Assembly: GCA_963707915.1 (NCBI GenBank)
Contig: OY970178.1
Location: forward strand, 2,272,001 to 2,336,000
DNA length: 64,000 nucleotides
Reading direction: 5' to 3'
Source of the DNA: Candidatus Eiseniibacteriota bacterium
Lineage (GTDB): Bacteria; Eisenbacteria; RBG-16-71-46
The notes beneath the pieces were generated by a model. The model saw nothing but the letters and a program-made list of their open reading frames with translations, did not search any database and was not told the DNA's origin. Positions 2,203-14,178 of the stretch are shown here, piece by piece. Position numbers and translations under genes: made by a program. Position 1 is the stretch's first letter. Each line of letters begins with the position of its first letter.

Positions 2203-2995
2203 CACGTTCTCACCCCCTCGGGTTGCGGGCCGCGAGGCCCTTCGGACTTCGGTGCGGAGGCCGGGACGCGCGGGGCCGCGTCGTCCGACTCGACCGCGCC
2301 GTCGCGCAGGACGATGCGCCGCTGCGCGTGGGCGGCCACGTCCGGGTCGTGGGTGACGACCACGACGGTCTGCCCCCCGGCGTGCAGCTCCGCGAGCAGC
2401 GCCAGCACCTCCTCGCCGGTCCGGGTGTCGAGGTTCCCGGTCGGCTCGTCGGCCAGCAGCAGCGCCGGCTCGGTCACCAGGGCACGCGCGATGGCGACCC
2501 GCTGGCGCTGCCCCCCGAGAGCTCGTTCGGGCGGTGGTGCATCCGGTCGGCGAGTTGCACGCGGCGGAGCGCTTCGGTCGCACGCCGGTGGCGCTCCTCG
2601 GCGCGGACGCCGGCGTAGACCAGCGGCAGCTCGACGTTGCGCAGGGCGGTCGCGCGCGCGAGCAGGTTGAAGGTCTGGAACACGAAGCCGATCTCGCGGT
2701 TGCGGATGTGCGCCAGCTCGGTGTCGGTCAGGCCCGAGACGAGCTGGCCATTGAGCCAGTACTCCCCGCGGGTGGGGGACTCCAGGCAGCCGAGGATGTT
2801 CATGAGCGTGGACTTCCCCGAGCCCGACGGCCCCATGATGGCCACGTACTCGTTCCGGGCGATCGCGATGTCCACGGACCGCAGCGCGTGCACCGTCTCG
2901 CTGCCCATGGCGTAGTCGCGACCCAGGCCGTTCACCCGGAGCACCGGCGCGCCCTCCCCGGCCACGGCGCCGCGCGCGAGCGCCACCTCGCTCAC
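2202..2995 (-). CDS. ABC transporter ATP-binding protein (LolD/MacB-like), split by a 1-bp indel at about 2511-2516
   Basis: Walker [20 protein letters not shown] and ELSGG occur in one frame. [22 protein letters not shown] and VVTHD continue in another. The break sits in a G6 run. Confidence 0.9.
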
Positions 2996-3651
2996 TCGGT
3001 CACCCGCGCGTAGACACGCTTGAACTCGCGGGCCGGCATGTCTTCGGAGCCCTCGATCCTCGTGCGGACCACCAGCAGGCTCCCGTCCGCCTCGAGCCGG
3101 ATGCTCTCGGTGACCTTGCCGCCGCGCGGGCCCTGCCGCTGGACCACCAGGGTGTCGCCCTTCCACCCTCCGCTCAGCACCGTCGCGCCGGGCGCGTGCG
3201 CGAGGTCGTCCTTCGCGCCACCCAGCGTGGTGATCTCCTGCAGCACGGTGCCGGTCGAGTCCTCGAAGCTGACGAGCTGGTCGGTGTGCGTGACGTGCAT
3301 CAGGTCGGGCAGCCGCGCGGGACGGCGGGCGGCACCCTCGGGACGCGGGCCCCGCGCACCCTCGCCCCCGGCGCGGCCCACGCCGCCTGGTCCGCCCATG
3401 CCGCGGCGTCCTCCCGGCCCACCGGGCCCGCCCATGCCGCCGGGGCGTCCACCGAGACGCTCGCCGCGCGGCCCGCCGGGCTCCTCGCCCCCGCCCGCAC
3501 CCCCCATCACGTCGCTGCGCTTCGGATCCAGCCGCCACTGCCCGGTCATGTCGGGCACCTGTGCGGCGCCCTGGGCGACGGCGGATGCGCCCGGCCACGC
3601 CACCACCGTGCCCGCGATCAACGCCAGGCCGATCACCGTACGACGGATCAT
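2992..3651 (-). CDS. Secreted hypothetical protein with a Gly/Pro/Arg-rich insert
   Basis: GGAGG RBS, signal peptide [14 protein letters not shown] and [15 protein letters not shown]. Its stop overlaps the ABC ATPase start (GTGA). Confidence 0.75.
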
Positions 3652-3764
3652 CGTGGTCCTCCTCGCTTCGGGTCCTGGCGCGGGCGGCGGGTTCCGCCGA
3701 CGCGCGCGGCCCACCTGCGGTGCCGCCCGGCATCCGCGCTTCTCGTCCCCAACCTACGCGTCCG

Positions 3765-3870
3765 GTGTGGCAGAGATGTGGCGTCGCGCTGGCAAATTCA
3801 GACTCGCGCGAGGCCACCAAGGCCCACACTCGCGCCACATCTCTGCCACACGTCCGGGATACGCTACGAT
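3765..3870. promoter_or_regulatory. Divergent promoter with two inverted copies of a GCCACA-N5-GCCACA tandem box (putative OmpR-family site)
   Basis: GTGTGGCAGAGATGTGGCG (3765-3783) is the exact reverse complement of CGCCACATCTCTGCCACAC (3833-3851). A TACGAT -10-like hexamer is at 3865-3870. Confidence 0.65.
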
Positions 3871-4603: not shown

Positions 4604-6033
4604 ACCGGCGCGGCCGCAGCCTGTTCTGGACCATCGCCGGCCTGTTCCTGGGTGCGCTGCTGGTCGGCACGCTCGTCCAGGTCCTGCTCGCCGTCGCCGT
4701 GCTGCGCCCGCTCGAGCTGCGCGAGTCGCGCTCGCGCGCCGAGGTGACCGCTTCCTCGCTCGCCGCCGAGATCGCCTCGTCGCCCGGACACTGGAGCGCC
4801 GCCGAGATGCGCGCGCTCATCGAGCGGCACCGCGCGATGCTCGGCCACGGCCCCGGCGTCTTCGGCTACCGCGACGGCGCGGGCTGGCGGATCACCGACC
4901 CGCCGGACCGCGGGCACTTCCTCGACCGCGTGCAGAGCATGGGCCTGCCGAACCGCGAGGGCGGTCCCGCGCCGCGGGAGTTGATCGTGCGCCGCCCGGT
5001 GATGCGCGGAAGCGAGCGGCTGGGCGAGGTCGTGGTGGTGCGGCCGCTGTGGCCGCGTCACGGGCCGTCGGCCTGGGGCTCCTCCACCGCGTTGCTGTTC
5101 GTCCCGATCGCGCTGGTCGTGTCGGTCGTCGTCGGGCTGCTGCTGGTGCGCGTGCTGGTGCGCCGGCTGCGGGCGATCGAGCTGCTCGCGGCGCGCGTCG
5201 CCGAGGGCGACCTCACGGTGCGCATCGGCGACGCCAGCGGGGACGAGATCGGGCGCCTGGCCGAGCGGCTCGACCGCATGACGGAGCGCCTGCTGGACGC
5301 GCGCACCCACGTCGAGGAGACCGAACAGCAGCGCCGGCAGCTCTTCGCCGACATCACGCACGAACTGGCCACGCCGCTGACCTCGATCCGCGGCTACGCC
5401 GAGACCCTGCTCGACCCCGGCGTGTCCGTCTCCGACGAGGAACGCGCCCGCTATCTGCGCGGCGTGCTGGAGGAATCCCGGCGCCTCGACCGCCTGATCC
5501 GCGACCTGTTCGAGCTGGCGCGGCTCGAGGCCGGGGCCTCGCCGCTCGCGCTCGAGCCGATCGACTGGACCGCGCTGTGCCGCAACACCGCCGAACGCTT
5601 CGCGCCGCGCTTCCGCGAGGCGGGCCTGGAGCTGCACTGGCAGGAGCCCGCGGCCGAGGCCTGGATCCACGCCGACGGCCACCGCATGGAGCAGGTGCTC
5701 GAGAACCTGCTGGTCAACACCCTGCGCTACGTGCCGGCGGGTGGGACCGTGGAGGCTTCGATCGCGCGCCCGGCCGGCCGGGCGGACCGCTTCCGCCTGG
5801 TGGTGAGCGACGACGGGCCCGGACTGCCGGACGCCGAGCGGGCGCACGTCTTCGAGCGCTTCTACCGCGCGGCGGGGACGCGCGGCGCCGGCGCCGCGCG
5901 CGACCAGGGCGGCTCGGGGCTGGGGCTCGCGATCGTGCGGGAGATCGTCGAACGGCACGGCGGCACGATCGCCGCCGAGTCGCGCGCGCCGCACGGACTC
6001 ACCATCGTCGTCGAGTTGCCGGCGCGCGCCTGA
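4600..6033 (+). CDS. HAMP-domain sensor histidine kinase
   Basis: Two TM segments, HAMP, H-box ITHELATPLT, and DDGPG/FERFYR/GSGLGL boxes. GTGA overlap with the regulator. Confidence 0.95.
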   Translation: MNRRGRSLFWTIAGLFLGALLVGTLVQVLLAVAVLRPLELRESRSRAEVTASSLAAEIASSPGHWSAAEMRALIERHRAMLGHGPGVFGYRDGAGWRITDPPDRGHFLDRVQSMGLPNREGGPAPRELIVRRPVMRGSERLGEVVVVRPLWPRHGPSAWGSSTALLFVPIALVVSVVVGLLLVRVLVRRLRAIELLAARVAEGDLTVRIGDASGDEIGRLAERLDRMTERLLDARTHVEETEQQRRQLFADITHELATPLTSIRGYAETLLDPGVSVSDEERARYLRGVLEESRRLDRLIRDLFELARLEAGASPLALEPIDWTALCRNTAERFAPRFREAGLELHWQEPAAEAWIHADGHRMEQVLENLLVNTLRYVPAGGTVEASIARPAGRADRFRLVVSDDGPGLPDAERAHVFERFYRAAGTRGAGAARDQGGSGLGLAIVREIVERHGGTIAAESRAPHGLTIVVELPARA

Positions 6034-6213: not shown

Positions 6214-6242
6214 TTGACGGCCGGAGGCTCCGGGACCATCAT
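6214..6242 (+). promoter_or_regulatory. Putative sigma70 promoter of ncRNA copy 1
   Basis: TTGACG-17 bp-CATCAT, positioned identically to the promoter of copy 2. Confidence 0.6.
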
Positions 6243-6246
6243 TGTG

Positions 6247-6432
6247 GGTGACGCCACGACGAAACGAGGTCGCGGCGTGAACCCACCCCACGAATAGAGT
6301 GGGGTCAGGCCGGCACCGGACTCCTTTGCGGGTCCCACGGCCAATACTGCGAACGACGCCGGTTGAGCGCCACCCCGGGACACGGGTCGAACCGAGAGTC
6401 CCCGAGCGACGAGCGATCGGCGTCGGGTATTT
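6247..6432 (+). ncRNA. Candidate structured ncRNA, copy 1 (family not recognised)
   Basis: Intergenic between convergent genes and homologous to 13026-13210. Has four conserved stem-loop domains, G-U pairs valid only on the + strand, and a compensatory base change. Confidence 0.7.
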
Positions 6433-6539
6433 CGGAGCGGGCCGCCCGCGCGGCCGCCGCGGACGCACGCGGCGCGCAGGCGCCGGGCGCCCGCCCCGGG
6501 ACCGGGCGGAGGTGGGGTGCGCGGAGGCGGCCGGCGGAG

Positions 6540-7691
6540 CTACCCGGCGTCCACCGTCCCGGTCACCCGCGGGTTCTCCGCCACCCCCGGGCCGAAGAAG
6601 CGCTTCTCGAGGTCGGCCCACGTCCATTCCGGCTCGCCCGAGGCCGCCAGTTCGTCGCGCAGGCGCGCGATCTCGTCCTGGTACCAGGCCACGACGGGCC
6701 TGCCGATCCGCAGGCCCTCGAGTTCCGCGGCGAGGTCCGCCGGCCGCAGCAGGCACGCCCAGCCGCGGTCGTAGGGGCTCTCGATGACCAGCCGCGGCGC
6801 GTGCTTCAGCTCCTCGTTCACCTGCGTGACCTCGCCGCCCAGCGGCGCCGGGATGCGGACCCGCTCGTCGCCCCGGACGCACGGTGAACAGCGTCCCGCC
6901 GCGCTTCACGCGTGGGTCCCCGGCGCCGGCAGTTCGACGCGGTCGACGGACTTCAGCGCCTTGCGCGCGAAGTCGTCGAGCCCGGTCCACACCTGGCCGG
7001 CCGGATCGATGCGCGCCCAGGCGTGTCCGGGCGAGACGAACGCGCCGCCCGGCACGCAGTACTCACCCGCCGCCACGCTCTCGGCCCGCGCCGGCGCGAC
7101 CACGCGCACCGTCGGTCGCAGCTGGGCCTCGAGCCGCGCCTCGCGCTTGATGAGGAGGCGCGTCGCCAGCGCGACCAACTCCTCCTCGGTGAAGGGCTTC
7201 TGCGCGTAGTCCACGGCGCCGAACTGCATGGTCTCGACCGCGGTCTCGATGGTGCCGTAGCCGGTGATCACGACGACGTCGAGATCGGGGCGCAGGTGGC
7301 GGGCCGCCTTGACCACCTCCACGCCGTCCATCACGGGCATCTTGAGGTCGGTGAACAGGAAGTCGTACGGATGGGCGCGCAGCAGCGTGAGCGCCTCGGG
7401 ACCGCTCTCCACGGTGTCCACGCTGAAGCCGGCGAGCACCAGGATCTTCCGGAAGCTGTCGAGGATGACGGGCTCGTCGTCCACCGCCAGGATGCGCGCA
7501 CGCGCTCCCGGCACCTCCGCGCGCTTCAGGCTCTTCGCCTCGTCGGCGAACGACAGCTGGAGCGCGCTCGTCAGGACGGCCTCGCGCTCGCGTTGCTCGC
7601 GCGCCGTGGCCATGCGCCGGGTGGCCGTGCGCACGATCAGGTCGGCGATGACGAAGAAGACGACCAGCAGGACCATCAGCAGAGCAGTCAT
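6540..7691 (-). CDS. Membrane-anchored receiver domain fused to a GcvH-like domain, with two indels near 6878-6910
   Basis: N-terminal TM, then REC (ILAVDDE, FTDLKMP, QKPF), then GcvH-like HAWARI..TGLDDFA..VELP, APLGGEVTQVNEEL and SPYDRGW. Confidence 0.85.
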
Positions 7692-8086
7692 GGCTTCCGT
7701 TCCTCGCGGGCATCCGCGGCCGGGGAAAGCACGCGTCGCACCAGGGTCAACAGCTCCGAATCATCGAAAGGCTTGGGCAGGAACGCCGCGGCGCCCGCGG
7801 TGAGGACGAGTTCCTCCTGCTCGGGCGTGGCGTACCCGGTGGTCATCACGATGGGCAGCTCCGGGCGGCGCGCGCGGATGGTCCGCAACGCGTCGAACCC
7901 GGAGAGCCCGGGGAGCATCAGGTCGCAGATCACGAGACGGCAGCCGGCCAGGGCCGGGTGCGTGAGCGCGGTCTCCGCGTCGGGGACCGCGGTGACCGCG
8001 AACCCCGCGTGCCCGAGGACCAGCCGGATCGCGTCCGACACGACCGGCTCGTCGTCCACGACGAGGATATCGCAGCGGTCCGTCAT
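7688..8086 (-). CDS. Single-domain response regulator (CheY-like)
   Basis: ILVVDDE, CDLMLPGLSG, TTGY and FLPKPF. Confidence 0.9.
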   Translation of the reverse strand: MTDRCDILVVDDEPVVSDAIRLVLGHAGFAVTAVPDAETALTHPALAGCRLVICDLMLPGLSGFDALRTIRARRPELPIVMTTGYATPEQEELVLTAGAAAFLPKPFDDSELLTLVRRVLSPAADAREERKP

Positions 8087-10100
8087 GACGCGCCCCCCGT
8101 CCCGTCCGGGGGCCCGCCGGCCGGGCGGGCCGCCGCCCGCGGGGCGACCGGCGCGGTCCGCCCCGGGCCCGGTTCGCCGCGCGCGTCGGGCATCGGGACC
8201 GCGGCCGGCGCCTCGGCGCCGGGGGCTCGGGCACCCGGCAGGGGATGCGCAGGGTGAAGCACGTGCCGCGGCCGGGCTCGCTCGCGACCGCGATCGAACC
8301 GCCGTGCCCCTCGACGATGCCCCAGGTCACGGCCAGGCCCAGCCCCGTGCCGCGCGCCCCCTTGGTCGTGAAGAAGGGCTCGAACAGCCGGTCCATCTCC
8401 TCCGGCGCGATGCCGCGTCCCGTGTCCTCCACCTCGATCTGCGCGTACGGTTGCGCCCCGACGGCATCCAGCGCCTCCCAGCGGCTGCCGGGACAGCCCT
8501 TGCGCGCGCACCAACTCGCCGCGCCGAGGCGCGCCACCTGCACGCCGAACATCGGCGCCCCGCATTCCGCGCAGCGCCGCTCCGGCAACTCGAGCCGCGC
8601 GCGGCAGGCGGGGCACAGGTAGGCGGCGATGACGCCCTCGTCGCACGGCTGCGACGCGCGGTGGTTCGCGCGGCCGTACACCGGGTCGAGGTGCACGACC
8701 GCCTCGCGGTCCATGACGCGCCGGATCACGCGGATCGCCGGGACCCCGGCGAGCCGCACGTGCGGGTCGAGCAGGTCGCAGCCCTTCGGGCACCGCGCGC
8801 TGCGGATCGTGGCGTTCCCGCGCGGCGGCACCGCCACCGCGGAGGTGCGCACGCGGATCGAACCGCCCGGCGGCGCGTCGTCGCCCGCCATCGCGTCCGC
8901 CGCGTTGAGCAGCAGGTTCACCACGACCTGCTGGACCTGGTTCTCGTCCGCCGGGACCGGCGCGAGATCGGACGCCAGCTCGAGCTCCACGCCGACGTGC
9001 GCCAGCGCCAGCTGGTTGGTGACGATGGTGCGGGCCCGTCGCACGACCTCGTTGAGGTCGGTCGGCACCCGCTTCGGCGGGGTCTGGCGGGCGAAGTCGA
9101 GGAGCCCGCGCACGATCTCGCGACAGCGCTTGGTCTCGCGCACGATGACGTCGAGGTCCGCGCGGGTCTCGGGGTCGTGCTCCGCGCGCTTCTCGAGGAA
9201 CGAGGCGTAGGTCAGCACGCCGGTGAGCGGGTTGTTGATCTCGTGCGCCACGCCGGCGGCGAGCCGGCCGACCGAGGCGAGCTTGTCGGCCTGGGCGAGC
9301 TGGCGCTGCGCCTCGTTCAGCCGGCTCGTCATGTGGTTGAAGGCGCGCGCGAGGTCGCCGAGCTCGTGCCGCGCCGTCGCGGGCACGGCGGTCGAGAGGT
9401 CGCCCTGGGCGACCCGGCGCGTGCTCGCGATGAGCACCGCCACCGGGCGGAGGATCAGCTGGCGGCTCAGCCACCACAGCAGCGCGCTGCTCGCGGCGAT
9501 CGCCAGCACGGCGAGCAGGATCAGGTTGCGCTGGTCGTGCGCGATCTGGCGGTCGGCCTCGGCGAGCGACAGGTTCACGTCGAGGACGCCGAGCACGGAC
9601 TCCCCGCGCGTGTGCGCGTGGCAGTCGGCGGTCCAGCAGCTCGACTGGTTGGCGATCGGCCGGATCATGCCGAGCACGCGGTGCCCGTCGCCGGCGCGGT
9701 AGATGCGGGCGCGGGCGTGGATCGGCAGCCGCTCGAGCGGGCGCCCGGCCGCGTGGCACGCGTAGCAGGCCTCGGCCCGCTTGTCGACCGCGCGGCCGAT
9801 CTCGGCCTCGTCGGAGGAGAACATCACGGTCCCGGTGCCGTTGAAGAGCCGGACCCGCTCGATGCCCTGCTGCCGGCCGATCGTGACGATCTCGCGGTGG
9901 ACCGCCTCCCGGCGGTTCTCGAGCATGTCGTGGTAGGTGCTGCTGGCGATGGTCTCGCTCAGCTGGTCGGCGCTGCGGGTGAGCTGGGCGATGAGCGCCC
10001 CCTGGTGGGCGCGCAGGATGATGACCGACATGACGCCGATCACCGCGGCCGTGACCGCCGCCACGCCCAGGATCGCCAGCGTCCCGATGCCCGCCTTCAA
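8083..10100 (-). CDS. NtrB-type sensor histidine kinase with a heme c sensor domain and a Cys-rich insert, probable 1-bp indel at about 8241-8244
   Basis: TTG start overlaps the NrfD stop. Contains CYACH and CWTADCH, HAMP, VAHEINNPL, NLLLNAADAM, DTGRG, FFTTK and GTGLGL. One more base in the 4-nt homopolymer gives FTLRIPL and a stop overlapping the next ATG. Confidence 0.9.
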
Positions 10101-11280
10101 GGCTTCGCTCCCCGCGGCGCCGGGACCGGACGGCCCGCGGTCGCGCGGCCCGGCCCGGGGAAGACGGGCAGGAAGCGCACCGCGAGCGCGAAGGCGGCGA
10201 ATCCGATGGCGACCAGACCGACGGACACCACGACCTCCATCCAGGTCGGCGCGTAGCGCGTGCCACTGGCCCGTTCGAGACCGGTCACGCTCACGTTGAG
10301 CCGGTGCATGATGAAGCCTAGCACAGCGAAGGCCGCGCCGGTCACGAGCCCGGCGGACGAGTTGCGGACGCGCGGCCAGGCCAGCAGCGCGACCGGCAGC
10401 ACGACGCCCGAGCCCGAACTCGACCAGGAACATCCGTCCCTCGTAGGTCGGGTTGCAGAGCGAGCGGCAGCGCGCCGCTGCGCGCCAGCGCCTGCAGGCG
10501 CAGCACGCCGAACACCGCGAGCACCACGACCATCGCCCGTCCGAGCGGCTCGAGCAGGTCCAGCTCGAGCCGCCGGCCGAAGGCCCGGCCGCTCAGGTGC
10601 GACTCGACGATGATCATCCCGAGCCCGGCGCCGATGGCCGAGACGTAGAACAGCAGCGGCAGCGTCGGCGAGTACCAGAGCGGGTGCAGCTTCTGGGGCA
10701 CGATCAGGTAGAGCGACCCCAGCGAGGACTGGTGCAGCGTGGAGAGCAGCACGCCCGACGATCACCAGCGGGGTGTTCACCCCGTGCAGGATCCGGCGCG
10801 CCCGCTCGAAGCCGAAGCGCTCGAGCACGAGGGGCACGAACTCGAGCGTCAGCACCGTGGTGTAGAGCATCACGCACCAGGCGACCTCGAACATCACCGA
10901 GTGCGGGTTCCAGAACACCATCGCGTGCCAGATGCGCCACGGCTGGCCGAGGTCGAAGAGCAGCGCGAACACCACGAACAGGTAGCCGAGGAACCCGGTC
11001 AGCACCGTGGGGCGCACGATCGGCTCGAAGCGACGGATGTGGAACAGGTGCACGACCGCCATGAGGTGAACGCGCCGGCCGCGAGCCCGACCCCGCAGAG
11101 GATGTCGAAGCCGATCCACAGGCCCCAGGGAACGCGGTCGCTCAGGTGGGTCGTCGCCCCGAGGCCGCGCGTGAAGCGCAGCACCGCGACGACCAGGAAG
11201 AGGCCGAGGAGCGCGAAGAAGACCGCGGTCCAGAACCCGATGCGCGGCCGGCGGGGCGCGGCTTCGAGCGTGGCGCTCAT
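10097..11280 (-). CDS. NrfD/PsrC/HybB-family membrane subunit, split by about 4 indels
   Basis: Segments in successive frames: GLGATTHLSDRVPWGLWIGFD, DLGQPWRIWH..SVMFEVAWC, STLHQSSLGSL..LHPLW and HRLNVS. Confidence 0.88.
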
Positions 11281-12060
11281 GGTCCCGGCCGCTCGTCGCG
11301 GCGCGGCCCGGCGGGCGGCTCGACCGGGGCGTCGGGGGCCTCGCTCCGGCGGACCTCCGCGCGGCGGCTGGTGATCCAGTGGATGCCGAAGAGGGACACG
11401 GCCGCGACCGTGACGATGTCGGGCAGCTGCGAGAGCACCTGCCAGGTGAGCGCGGGCAGCGGCTCGCGCGGCAGGCCGTCCGGCAGGCCGAGTCGCGCGA
11501 ACGGCACCCCGGCCAGCAGGAGCACCGCCGTGCCGCCGGCTTCGTCGAGCCCGTAGATGCGGTCCACGTAGCGCGCCGGGGCGTGCGCGATCCGGTCGCG
11601 CGCCTCGCGAATCAACGCCGCGCGCTCGCCGCTGAGGGTCGCGCCCGTCGGGCAGACCTGGGCACAGGCCACCGGCTGGCCGGCGGCGAGCCGCGGTGCG
11701 CACATCACGCACTTGCCCACCAGCGGGACCGGACGGTCCCACTGGTACTTCGGGACGTCGAACGGGCACGCCATGATGCAGTAGCGGCAGCCGATGCACA
11801 GCTTCGAGTCGTAGATCACCGGCCCCGCGGCCGTCTTCTTCATCGCGCCCGACCGGGCACACCGAAGCGCAGGTCGGCGTGAGGCAGTGCATGCAGAGGC
11901 GGCGCACGTTCACCCCGGCCCGTCGCTCGACGACGGTCCAGGTGTAGGCCGTGGTCTGCGGCTCGATCCGGTGGGGCAGGCCGTTCTGCTCCTTGCACGC
12001 CGCCGAGCAGGCGCCGCAGCCGATGCAGCGCGTCGAGTCGAACAGGATCCCCCGGCTCAC
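11277..12060 (-). CDS. 4Fe-4S dicluster subunit (HybA/NrfC-like) with a C-terminal TM, indel at about 11848
   Basis: CIGCGACSAAC, CMHCLTPTCASVCP, CIGCRYCIMACP and KCVMC..ACAQVCP. Confidence 0.9.
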
Positions 12061-12776
12061 GGCCGGGCCCCGGGCTCGGCGTGGCAGCGCGAACAGGCGT
12101 CCGGGTCGGCCGCGGCGAAGGCCTGCTTGCCGTCGTGGCAGGCCCCGCACGCCGCGCGCTCGTGCATCCCGCCACCCGGCCGGGGAGACGTGAAGGTCAT
12201 CTTGAAGGGCTTCGGATGGCATCGCGCGCAGCCGCCCGCGCCGAGCAGGTGCGGCTCGTGCCGGAAGGTGACCACCCCGGGGGAGGCGTCGCTCGCGGGA
12301 TAGGCATGCGGTCCCGGCAGGCGGCGGGCAGCGGTCCCGGCCAGGTCCCGGGCGCCCGCGGCGGTCAGGCCGGGCAGAGGACCGGTGTGGCAGGTGCGGC
12401 ACTTGCCGGAATCCAGGACCCCGAACGCCTGCTTCCCGTCGTGACACATGCCGCAGCCCCCTCCAGCGTTCATGTCCCGATGCGCCTGGGCTGGCCCCCT
12501 GCGCAGGATGGGGAACGGTCGAAGATGGCAGCCCGTGCACCGGTTCCCGGCGAACGCCACGTGGCTCTGGTGGCTGAAGACCACCGCGCTATCCGAGCCA
12601 ACGACAAAGTCATAGACGATGTCGGCGGGCAGGCGCAGCGCCGCGGGGGCAACTCGCGCCGAATCGCGCGCGCCCCGCTCGGCGCCGGGCGCGACCGCTG
12701 GACCCATGAATTGCGCTGCGAGCAGGACCGCCCATGCGCACCAGGCACGCAGGATGCGGCAGGAGGGTGAACCCAA
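12057..12776 (-). CDS. Periplasmic hexaheme cytochrome c (two c7-like triheme domains)
   Basis: Six CxxCH motifs (CTGCH, CGMCH, CRTCH, CARCH, CGACH, CSRCH). The VxFxHxxH and CHDGKQAF elements are duplicated. Signal peptide and AAGGAG RBS present. Confidence 0.9.
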   Translation of the reverse strand: MGSPSCRILRAWCAWAVLLAAQFMGPAVAPGAERGARDSARVAPAALRLPADIVYDFVVGSDSAVVFSHQSHVAFAGNRCTGCHLRPFPILRRGPAQAHRDMNAGGGCGMCHDGKQAFGVLDSGKCRTCHTGPLPGLTAAGARDLAGTAARRLPGPHAYPASDASPGVVTFRHEPHLLGAGGCARCHPKPFKMTFTSPRPGGGMHERAACGACHDGKQAFAAADPDACSRCHAEPGARP

Positions 12777-12813
12777 GGAATCTCCTTCCCGACCAGGATG
12801 AGTATTACTACGG

Positions 12814-12842
12814 ATGGTAGCGTCCCTTTACTTCCGTGTGAA
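12814..12842 (-). promoter_or_regulatory. Putative sigma70 promoter of the cytochrome cluster
   Basis: Minus strand TTCACA-17 bp-TACCAT in an AT-richer patch. Confidence 0.5.
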
Positions 12843-12992
12843 GTGACAACTCCGAGTCGGGGCCGATGAGCCGTGCCGGGCCCCGCCAGGGCCCGGCGGC
12901 AAGGAGGATCACGGGGTTCCCCGGGGGTGAACCGGCCTCGAGCGTCCGGCGGCGACCGCGCCGGAGCCGATCGGCAGGTGGCAGAGAACCCC

Positions 12993-13021
12993 TTGACAGC
13001 CCCGGGGGGCGGAACAATGCT
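12993..13021 (+). promoter_or_regulatory. Putative sigma70 promoter of ncRNA copy 2
   Basis: TTGACA-17 bp-AATGCT, 4 nt before the conserved GGTGACGCC 5' end. Confidence 0.65.
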
Positions 13022-13025
13022 CTTT

Positions 13026-13210
13026 GGTGACGCCACGACGCAGAGATTTCGGCGTTAGGTCACCCCCCACGTTTCGAGTGGGGTCGGGCCGGCAGCGGGC
13101 TCCCGTGCGGGCCCCTCGGCCATCACTGCGAACGACGCCGGTTGAGCGCCACCCCGGGACACGGATGCATTGGAGAGTCCCTGAGCGACGAGCGATCGGC
13201 GTCGACTATT
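13026..13210 (+). ncRNA. Candidate structured ncRNA, copy 2 (family not recognised)
   Basis: Homologous to 6247-6432 at an offset of 6779, including a 40-nt identical block. The next gene is convergent. Confidence 0.7.
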
Positions 13211-13314
13211 GGGGGCGCACCGCCGGGAGCATCCCCCGGGGATCCCCGGCCACCACGGGGGCTCGCAGCTGACGCCGGTCCGCGCCCCGCGGGGGCGCGC
13301 CGCTCTGCCGCCGG

Positions 13315-13884
13315 TTACAGCCCCAACTCGCCCCGGATACCCCGAAGCGCCTCGAGCGTGGTGGCGATGTGCGAGTCGAGCTCGACCCCCAGCTCGGCCG
13401 CGCCCCGGACGATGTCCTCGCGGCTCACGTTCCGGGCGAAGTCGGCGCGCTTCATCTTCTTCCTGACCCCCGCCACCTCGACCTCGTCGAGCGACTTGTG
13501 CGGCGTGATGAGCGCGCAGGCCACCAGGAAGCCGCACAGCTCGTCACAGGCGTAGAGCACCCGCGCCATCGGCGTCCCGCGCGGCACCCCGGTGTGGGTC
13601 GCGTGACCGAGCACCGCCTGGCAGATGTCCTCCGGCCAGCCCAGCCCGCGCAGCACCTTCACCCCCTCGAGCGGATGGCGCTCGGCGTCGGGGTGACGCT
13701 CCCAGTCGAAGTCGTGGACCAGGCCGGCCAGTCCCCAGCGCTCCTCGTCGGCGCCCAGCAGGCGCGCGTGGTGACGCATCGCGGCCTCGACCGCCAGGCA
13801 GTGCTTGCGCAGGTTCGGGTTCTGGATCCACTCGTGCAGCAGCGCGAGCGCCTGCTCGCGGGTGGGAAGGGCGGGGTCGCTCAC
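13315..13884 (-). CDS. HDIG/HD-domain metal-dependent phosphohydrolase
   Basis: LRKHCLAVEAAM, GLVHDFD, ACDELCG and FARNVSRE. Confidence 0.9.
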   Translation of the reverse strand: MSDPALPTREQALALLHEWIQNPNLRKHCLAVEAAMRHHARLLGADEERWGLAGLVHDFDWERHPDAERHPLEGVKVLRGLGWPEDICQAVLGHATHTGVPRGTPMARVLYACDELCGFLVACALITPHKSLDEVEVAGVRKKMKRADFARNVSREDIVRGAAELGVELDSHIATTLEALRGIRGELGL

Positions 13885-13938: not shown

Positions 13939-14178
13939 TCACTTGTCGTCGAAGAAGGCGCGGTTCTTCTCGATGTAGTCCACCCACTTCTCGGGCACGC
14001 TGCTGTCCGGGAAGATGGCCTGCACCGGGCACGCGGCCTCGCACGCCTGGCAATCGATGCATTCGTCGGGATGGATGTAGAACTGGTCCTCGCCCTCGTA
14101 GATGCAGTTGACCGGGCAGACCTCGACGCAGGACTTGTCCTTCACGCCGATGCAGGGCTCCGCGATGACGAACGGCAT
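13939..14178 (-). CDS. 7Fe-type ferredoxin
   Basis: CIGVKDKSCVEVCPVNCI..IHPDECIDCQACEAACP. Confidence 0.95.
   Translation of the reverse strand: MPFVIAEPCIGVKDKSCVEVCPVNCIYEGEDQFYIHPDECIDCQACEAACPVQAIFPDSSVPEKWVDYIEKNRAFFDDK

Follow-up and report, generated by a model that had tools for sequence, protein, structure and literature searches.

The analysed stretch of DNA carried two genes which appear to be paralogous and to encode a structured small RNA of approximately 180-187 nt, each as a transcription unit of its own. As far as searched, this RNA represents a previously undescribed structured small RNA family which is confined to one family of Eisenbacteria (f1). Judged from sequence comparison, it is probably an independently transcribed, lineage-specific regulatory small RNA that acts in trans with its third hairpin (P3) as the working part. 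The stretch (64 kb, hereafter the window) corresponded to G000:C1:2272001-2336000 of a single-contig genome (G000) of 3.62 Mb which was 94.8% complete, and the G+C content of the window was 72.8%.

Copy 1 was located at 6247-6433 and copy 2 at 13026-13212, both on the + strand. Copy 1 was matched over its full length with 211.7 bits by a covariance model built from 10 sequences (R1) and with 144.6 bits by a second model built from 29 sequences (R2), with a predicted start at approximately 6247-6250, while the corresponding scores of copy 2 were 169.1 and 114.1 bits. The preliminary description of this DNA had reported two diverged copies of 179 nt with three blocks in common, and this was borne out by a gap-free pairwise alignment of 6247-6425 with 13026-13204. 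A 15-nt 5' end (GGTGACGCCACGACG) was common to both copies, a 40-nt block was identical between them (6346-6385 and 13125-13164), and so was a 22-nt block at the 3' end (GAGCGACGAGCGATCGGCGTCG). The divergence between the two copies was 17%. BLAST search of the genome matched just these two places, with 82-83% identity and an E-value of about 1e-47, so the RNA is not a dispersed repeat; the dozens of scattered copies which would be expected of a MITE or REP were not seen. Long spurious ORFs overlapped both copies and gave no Pfam match. A tree of the copies did not resolve the genus.

A promoter-like sequence was present upstream of both copies. For copy 1 (6214-6242, + strand) a -35 element TTGACG (6214-6219) was followed by a 17-bp spacer and a -10 element CATCAT (6237-6242). 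For copy 2 (12993-13021, + strand) the elements were TTGACA (12993-12998) and AATGCT (13016-13021), again with a 17-bp spacer, and the TTGAC-17-xATxxT pattern noted earlier for both copies was therefore confirmed. A promoter scan over 7.5 kb, where 0.2 sites would be expected, returned only two promoter-like sites, one of them the copy 1 promoter; the copy 2 promoter sequence was under the threshold of the same scanner. Among homologues, 60 nt of upstream DNA could be compared for 66 distinct sequences; TTGAC was kept in 65 of these upstream regions, in nearly all 32-37 nt before the match. The consensus consisted of an A/T-rich stretch, TTGAC, a G/C-rich 17-bp spacer and a TGnAAT-like -10 element, the final T of which was conserved in 86% of the upstream regions. 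Flanks farther upstream could not be aligned. For promoter comparison with the small RNA, the 6S and SRP RNA genes of the genome were inspected and were both placed after other genes. Another promoter-like site, TTCACA-17-TACCAT at 12814-12842 on the minus strand, faced the cytochrome c7 operon approximately 150 nt from the copy 2 promoter, which makes the two units divergent neighbours.

At the other end, the 8 nt 3' of the last hairpin (P4) contained at least three U in 64 of 70 homologues and at least four in 55 of 70; in copy 1 this U-containing tail was GGTATTTC (6426-6433, + strand). P4 was not called by a simple terminator scanner since its loop was longer than 8 nt and it had fewer than five T. 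Pair counts in the homologues gave 232 for G-U plus U-G versus 87 for A-C plus C-A, and this excess places the RNA on the + strand. From the promoter position, the U-tract and the G-U excess, a sigma-70-type promoter (TTGAC, 17-bp spacer, TGnAAT-like -10) would start the RNA a few bases before P1, the hairpins P1 to P3 would follow, and the long P4 with its U-tract would end the transcript. A promoter and an intrinsic terminator of its own, two marks of an independently transcribed bacterial small RNA, are both predicted here. The independent + strand transcription unit proposed in the preliminary description thus fits the -35/-10 elements, the U-tract, the G-U excess and the convergent genes, with transcription itself predicted from these signals.

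The predicted fold consisted of four hairpins on the + strand. In copy 1, P1 (6251-6278) was formed by ACGCC/GGCGT around CGAC/GTCG, P2 (6286-6304) by CCCCAC/GTGGGG, and P3 (6308-6342) by GGCCG/CGGCC around an internal loop and an inner stem, while the long P4 (6354-6425), the putative intrinsic terminator, had a 12-bp base with the arms CGACGCCGGTTG/CGATCGGCGTCG. The hairpins of copy 2 were located at 13030-13055 (P1), 13065-13083 (P2), 13087-13121 (P3) and 13133-13204 (P4). All four helices named in the preliminary description were found in the sequence, as was the compensatory change it pointed out between the copies in the inner stem of P3 (GGAC/GTCC in copy 1, GGGC/GCCC in copy 2). Its further claim that both copies fold into four domains stood for copy 1, for which single-sequence folding gave all four hairpins at -92.1 kcal/mol (z -3.70, a value equalled by 1 of 200 shuffles), but was less convincing for copy 2 taken alone, for which the minimum-energy fold was weaker and rearranged P2 and P3 (z -1.36, equalled by 17 of 200 shuffles). 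In the consensus, copy 2 had lost the inner P1 stem and kept P2, P3 and P4.

Covariation was assessed on an alignment fitted to R2. Its 100 sources were the window, 40 genome loci, 20 loci of GTDB genomes and 39 of 47 metagenome loci, which gave 99 matches at an E-value of 1e-10 or better and 70 distinct sequences. Standard pairs were formed in 91.2% of 3048 cells, a share which leans towards the structure of the model to which the alignment was fitted, and it fell to 28-48% when the partners were slid by 1-3 columns. Double compensatory changes were found at 37 of the 45 pairs, including 9 of 9 pairs in P1 and 3 of 5 pairs in P2, where 99.1% of the cells were paired. None of 500 shuffles reached the observed value on any of five measures. 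Structure-blind alignment with MAFFT followed by RNAalifold produced the same P1-P4, as did the first alignment of 10 sequences, and the column pairs with the highest mutual information were mostly those of the model. The structural selection proposed earlier is therefore upheld, by covariation among the 70 distinct homologues and by the independent MAFFT/RNAalifold fold. No pseudoknot emerged from mutual information, the high-scoring pairs outside the model being clade markers with low pairing.

Generally, changes in stems were compensatory while loops showed indels of 1-2 nt. The interior of P4 varied between genera and its base was kept. P3 was the most conserved part in most genera outside this genus, with the apparent conservation inflated by the 59 of the 100 alignment sources that had been picked by the P3 pattern. 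Its consensus in the MAFFT/RNAalifold alignment, seen also among the sequences found by the model, was GGCCGAG.GCGGAACCUCU.AGGGGGACCGCCGGCC, which can be read as a putative bulge of 3 nt (A-G-N), a 2x2 loop of purines and a tip strand rich in pyrimidines (CCUCU).

Comparison with known RNAs supported the earlier suggestion that no known family is involved. A search of the whole window with the 4227 models of Rfam 15 at gathering thresholds gave no matches. In E-value mode, copy 1 showed chance-level matches only, at most 16 bits against thresholds of 45-85, and copy 2 none. The same search on 16 representative homologues returned only two unrelated sub-threshold matches. The 6S RNA of the genome (RF00013) was found at G000:C1:810963-811183 with 71.2 bits and its SRP RNA at another locus. 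The 6S RNA was rejected as a candidate identity for the small RNA, with RF00013 matching elsewhere and the pairing of the 5' and 3' ends not above that of shuffles.

The distribution of the RNA was followed outward from this genus. With BLAST, copy 1 was found in 9 of 61 genomes, namely this genome, all seven others of the genus and one of a sister genus; in G007, just the last 35 nt of the RNA were visible, at the start of a contig. Within the family, R1 matched 35 of 89 genomes. Within the order, R2 matched 38 of 102, and these all belonged to f1 and represented 19 of its 28 genera; E-values of both models are rough, their calibration having been shortened. The homologue search called for in the preliminary description has thus produced full-length homologues in these 19 genera. 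The RNA was not matched by R2 in the two sister families (0 of 3 and 0 of 10 genomes), and within f1 it was not found in nine of the 28 genera, among them g2 (0 of 16), g22 (0 of 18) and g24 (0 of 3). In an even sample of the phylum comprising 151 genomes, two of the 91 genomes outside f1 gave weak full-length matches (E-values 3e-5 and 3e-4), and in one of these P1, P2 and the terminator were kept and P3 was reduced. Most genomes had one copy, and G000, G005 and G077 had two.

Searches by the P3 pattern yielded 20 loci in GTDB genomes, of which 15 were labelled Candidatus Eisenbacteria bacterium, 3 uncultured bacterium and 2 other, and 47 contigs in metagenomes. Two contigs with the RNA, L055 and L061, carried the labels Candidatus Udaeobacter sp. 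and Candidatus Saccharimonadaceae bacterium; their scores equal the matches in G079 and G036, both of family f1, and the labels look unreliable. In addition, a divergent RNA was sought in five genomes without a hit (G008, G035, G028, G061 and G021), both after dnaE and beside the HDIG gene, in the latter case with filters off, and the best results were hairpin fragments of 9 bits. As the RNA was found neither in nine of the 28 genera nor at the syntenic spot in these five genomes, it is dispensable.

Upstream of copy 1, on the same strand, were a response regulator gene and a histidine kinase gene (4747-6033, + strand, with a tentative 5' limit) which ends at 6033. A block of minus-strand genes between the copies (6540-12776) encoded cytochrome c7, a 4Fe-4S protein, NrfD, a histidine kinase and a response regulator with a GCV_H-like domain. 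Its GCV_H-like gene (6540-6905, minus strand) lay downstream of copy 1 and convergent with it. Downstream of copy 2 was a convergent HDIG-domain gene (13315-13884, minus strand; Pfam HD, NCBIfam HDIG), with a gene for an FdxA-type ferredoxin (13939-14178, minus strand) upstream of the HDIG gene, and the same pair adjoins the RNA in other genera. It had been noted before that each copy points into the 3' end of a minus-strand gene, and the GCV_H-like and HDIG genes show this to be correct.

Among 30 loci viewed with 1.5 kb of flanking DNA in both directions, 12 had dnaE, seen by its 3' end, as the upstream same-strand gene. The nearest confident downstream ORF was on the minus strand in 20 loci, was absent in 6 and in 4 was a small unsupported ORF on the + strand, one of which was scanned and gave no Pfam family while the other three were too short to scan. 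No convincing same-strand downstream gene was thus seen in the 30 loci, in keeping with the earlier view that the RNA is not a 5' leader. In 29 of the 40 full-length hits, a convergent HDIG orthologue lay no more than 1 kb from the RNA. Gaps between the RNA and this gene went down to 14-20 nt, and since P4 usually lies 14-130 nt from the convergent HDIG stop codon, it probably doubles as a shared terminator for the HDIG gene. In the other 11 hits the RNA was at a contig end (3) or farther away (8, among them copy 1 of this genome and the corresponding copy of G005).

The two copies in this genome bracket the minus-strand block over 6.6 kb (6433-13026). G005 had the same layout with its copies 6.7 kb apart, and in G004 a single copy had the kinase and HDIG genes as its immediate neighbours on either side. 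The two-copy layout of G005 and the single-copy layout of G004 suggest that recombination between the RNA copies led to gain or loss of the block. In G077, which belongs to another genus, there were likewise two copies (regions C9:15811-17949 and C14:1229451-1234450), the second being 1.5 kb from a second HD paralogue with 52% identity, as if RNA and gene had been duplicated together. At 6540-7760 (minus strand), a receiver domain and a GCV_H-like domain were in one frame with a single in-frame TGA at 6906-6908, and the G005 orthologue was an uninterrupted ORF of 386 aa with both domains; a nonsense mutation, recoding or an error in the assembly might explain the TGA. Finally, elsewhere in the window (2474-3838 and 895-2727, both minus strand), the match of an ABC-transporter ATPase broke off at position 113 of a 137-position profile, and the ORF concerned overlapped that of an outer-membrane efflux protein, which may reflect a frameshift or a miscalled start.

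The RNA would act in trans as a regulator. Being dispensable, present in one or two copies and restricted to one lineage, it fits a regulatory rather than a housekeeping RNA. P3 would most likely do the work, with its sequence as well as its shape kept in most genera. The conservation of sequence within the P3 loops suggests that a protein or another RNA recognises this hairpin, and the pattern would suit a protein or a purine-rich stretch of RNA as the partner. Searches of this genome (94.8% complete) revealed no gene for Hfq or ProQ. RNAduplex predictions for six RNA copies of five genomes against the mRNA start regions of fdxA and the HDIG gene, scored against shuffled targets and with the HD gene of G006 lacking a recognisable start, gave z from -0.98 to +1.31 and hence no signal.

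The main rival to a trans-acting regulator is a role in cis, in which the RNA would be an element of the convergent HDIG-ferredoxin operon and would serve to terminate transcription of that operon or, through read-through, to counteract it, either as an antisense or transcription-interference controller or as a shared bidirectional terminator. Such a role is unlikely, and it is kept alive by the tight convergence on the HDIG gene: the 29 of 40 hits with an orthologue within 1 kb fit a cis role equally well, the second copy of G077 lies close to an HD paralogue, and the interior of P4 varies freely above a conserved base. However, copy 1 and its counterpart in G005 are 6.8-6.9 kb away from the HDIG gene and have nevertheless kept the promoter and the better fold. 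An HDIG orthologue with 66-93% identity was present in all 28 genera, including those without the RNA. In G021, dnaE and a convergent ORF, read as the HD gene from the coordinates of the orthologue, were approximately 75 nt apart with no RNA between them; the RNA is therefore an optional gene of restricted lineage in a spot that is otherwise conserved. Furthermore, a plain terminator needs neither conserved P1-P3 hairpins nor a promoter, and synteny within one family can be explained by vertical inheritance alone.

More speculatively, P1-P3 might be a sensing domain which sets the rate at which transcription stops at P4, and thereby the amount of antisense transcription into the HDIG-ferredoxin operon, or else the RNA might be the scaffold of an Eisenbacteria-specific ribonucleoprotein; little probability is given to this pair of ideas. 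If true, a P1-P3 domain sensing a protein or a small molecule would make the RNA a new class of stand-alone antisense controller.

A switchable, leader-like RNA was considered as well, in which the 3' arm of P1 would pair with the 5' arm of P4, with P2 and P3 enclosed in a three-way junction, and prevent the terminator, so that read-through would be controlled in the manner of a riboswitch. The arms of P1 (GACGCC/GGCGU) are the same words as those of P4, the alternative pairs are possible in 81.6% of 675 cells, and the layout resembles that of riboswitch-controlled antisense RNAs. This share, however, hardly differs from the shuffle mean of 80.6%, and the covariation score was reached by 66 of 500 shuffles. 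The arms of P1 change together (ACGAC/GTCGT, GCACC/CGTGC, CTGAC/GTCA) while those of P4 stay ACGCC/GGCGT, which breaks the alternative helix, and no same-strand gene was seen downstream for such a switch to control. A switch of this kind is thus highly improbable, and a 5' leader or riboswitch was rejected, as neither a same-strand gene nor a conserved anti-terminator pairing was found.

A sponge for CsrA/RsmA of the CsrB/RsmZ type is scarcely credible. The genome does encode CsrA, and GGA occurs in the P3 and P4 regions of some members, but the 2-7 GGA per RNA counted in 29 sequences compare with roughly 4 estimated by chance from base composition and are not placed in loops. CsrA was encoded in 83 of 89 genomes, including those of the RNA-less genera g2 (16 of 16) and g22 (17 of 18). 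With neither GGA in loops nor co-occurrence with CsrA, this candidate was rejected. Finally, a MITE/REP-type mobile or repeated element, or else a stretch that codes for protein, suggested by two copies 6.8 kb apart around a gene block and by the spurious long ORFs over both, has next to no probability given the two copies here and mostly one per genome elsewhere, their 17% difference, the syntenic position across genera, the compensatory stem changes with loop indels of 1-2 nt and the overlapping ORFs without a Pfam match.

All knowledge of the Eisenbacteria phylum comes from metagenomes. Structured small RNAs specific to one lineage turn up regularly, and the kind itself is no surprise. In a limited literature search, no description of a non-coding RNA of Eisenbacteria was found; the passages on Eisenbacteria seen in one paper concern CsrA and not such an RNA. 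For this lineage, the analysis provides a covariation-backed RNA family and a working covariance model which can be used for annotation. The clear promoter consensus is a further gain for the lineage, and the RNA is a concrete object for metatranscriptome or heterologous tests.

Four known systems can be set beside the RNA. It is similar to 6S RNA in its length of approximately 180 nt, its stable structure and a probably strong promoter, but 6S RNA forms one long helix with a central bubble while four separate hairpins are predicted here. Like CsrB, RsmY and RsmZ, it is a small RNA of several hairpins with a predicted terminator at its end and a host which encodes CsrA, and differs from these as its GGA motifs are neither enriched nor loop-placed and its presence does not track CsrA. 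Riboswitch-controlled antisense RNAs, such as the B12-dependent RNA antisense to pocR in Listeria, likewise have a structured 5' domain followed by a terminator and are aimed at the 3' end of a convergent gene. In contrast to these, no match to a known aptamer was found here, the candidate alternative pairing showed no covariation, and the HDIG gene is distant both from the better-preserved copy 1 and from the corresponding copy of G005. The RNA can also be compared with orphan, lineage-specific structured small RNA motifs such as Acido-1, Chlorobi-1 and Flavo-1. All of these are in Rfam, whereas the RNA of this Eisenbacteria family has no Rfam match and is tied to the spacer between dnaE and the HDIG-fdxA pair; it shares with them a few covarying hairpins, restriction to one lineage, promoter and terminator signals and a noncoding nature.
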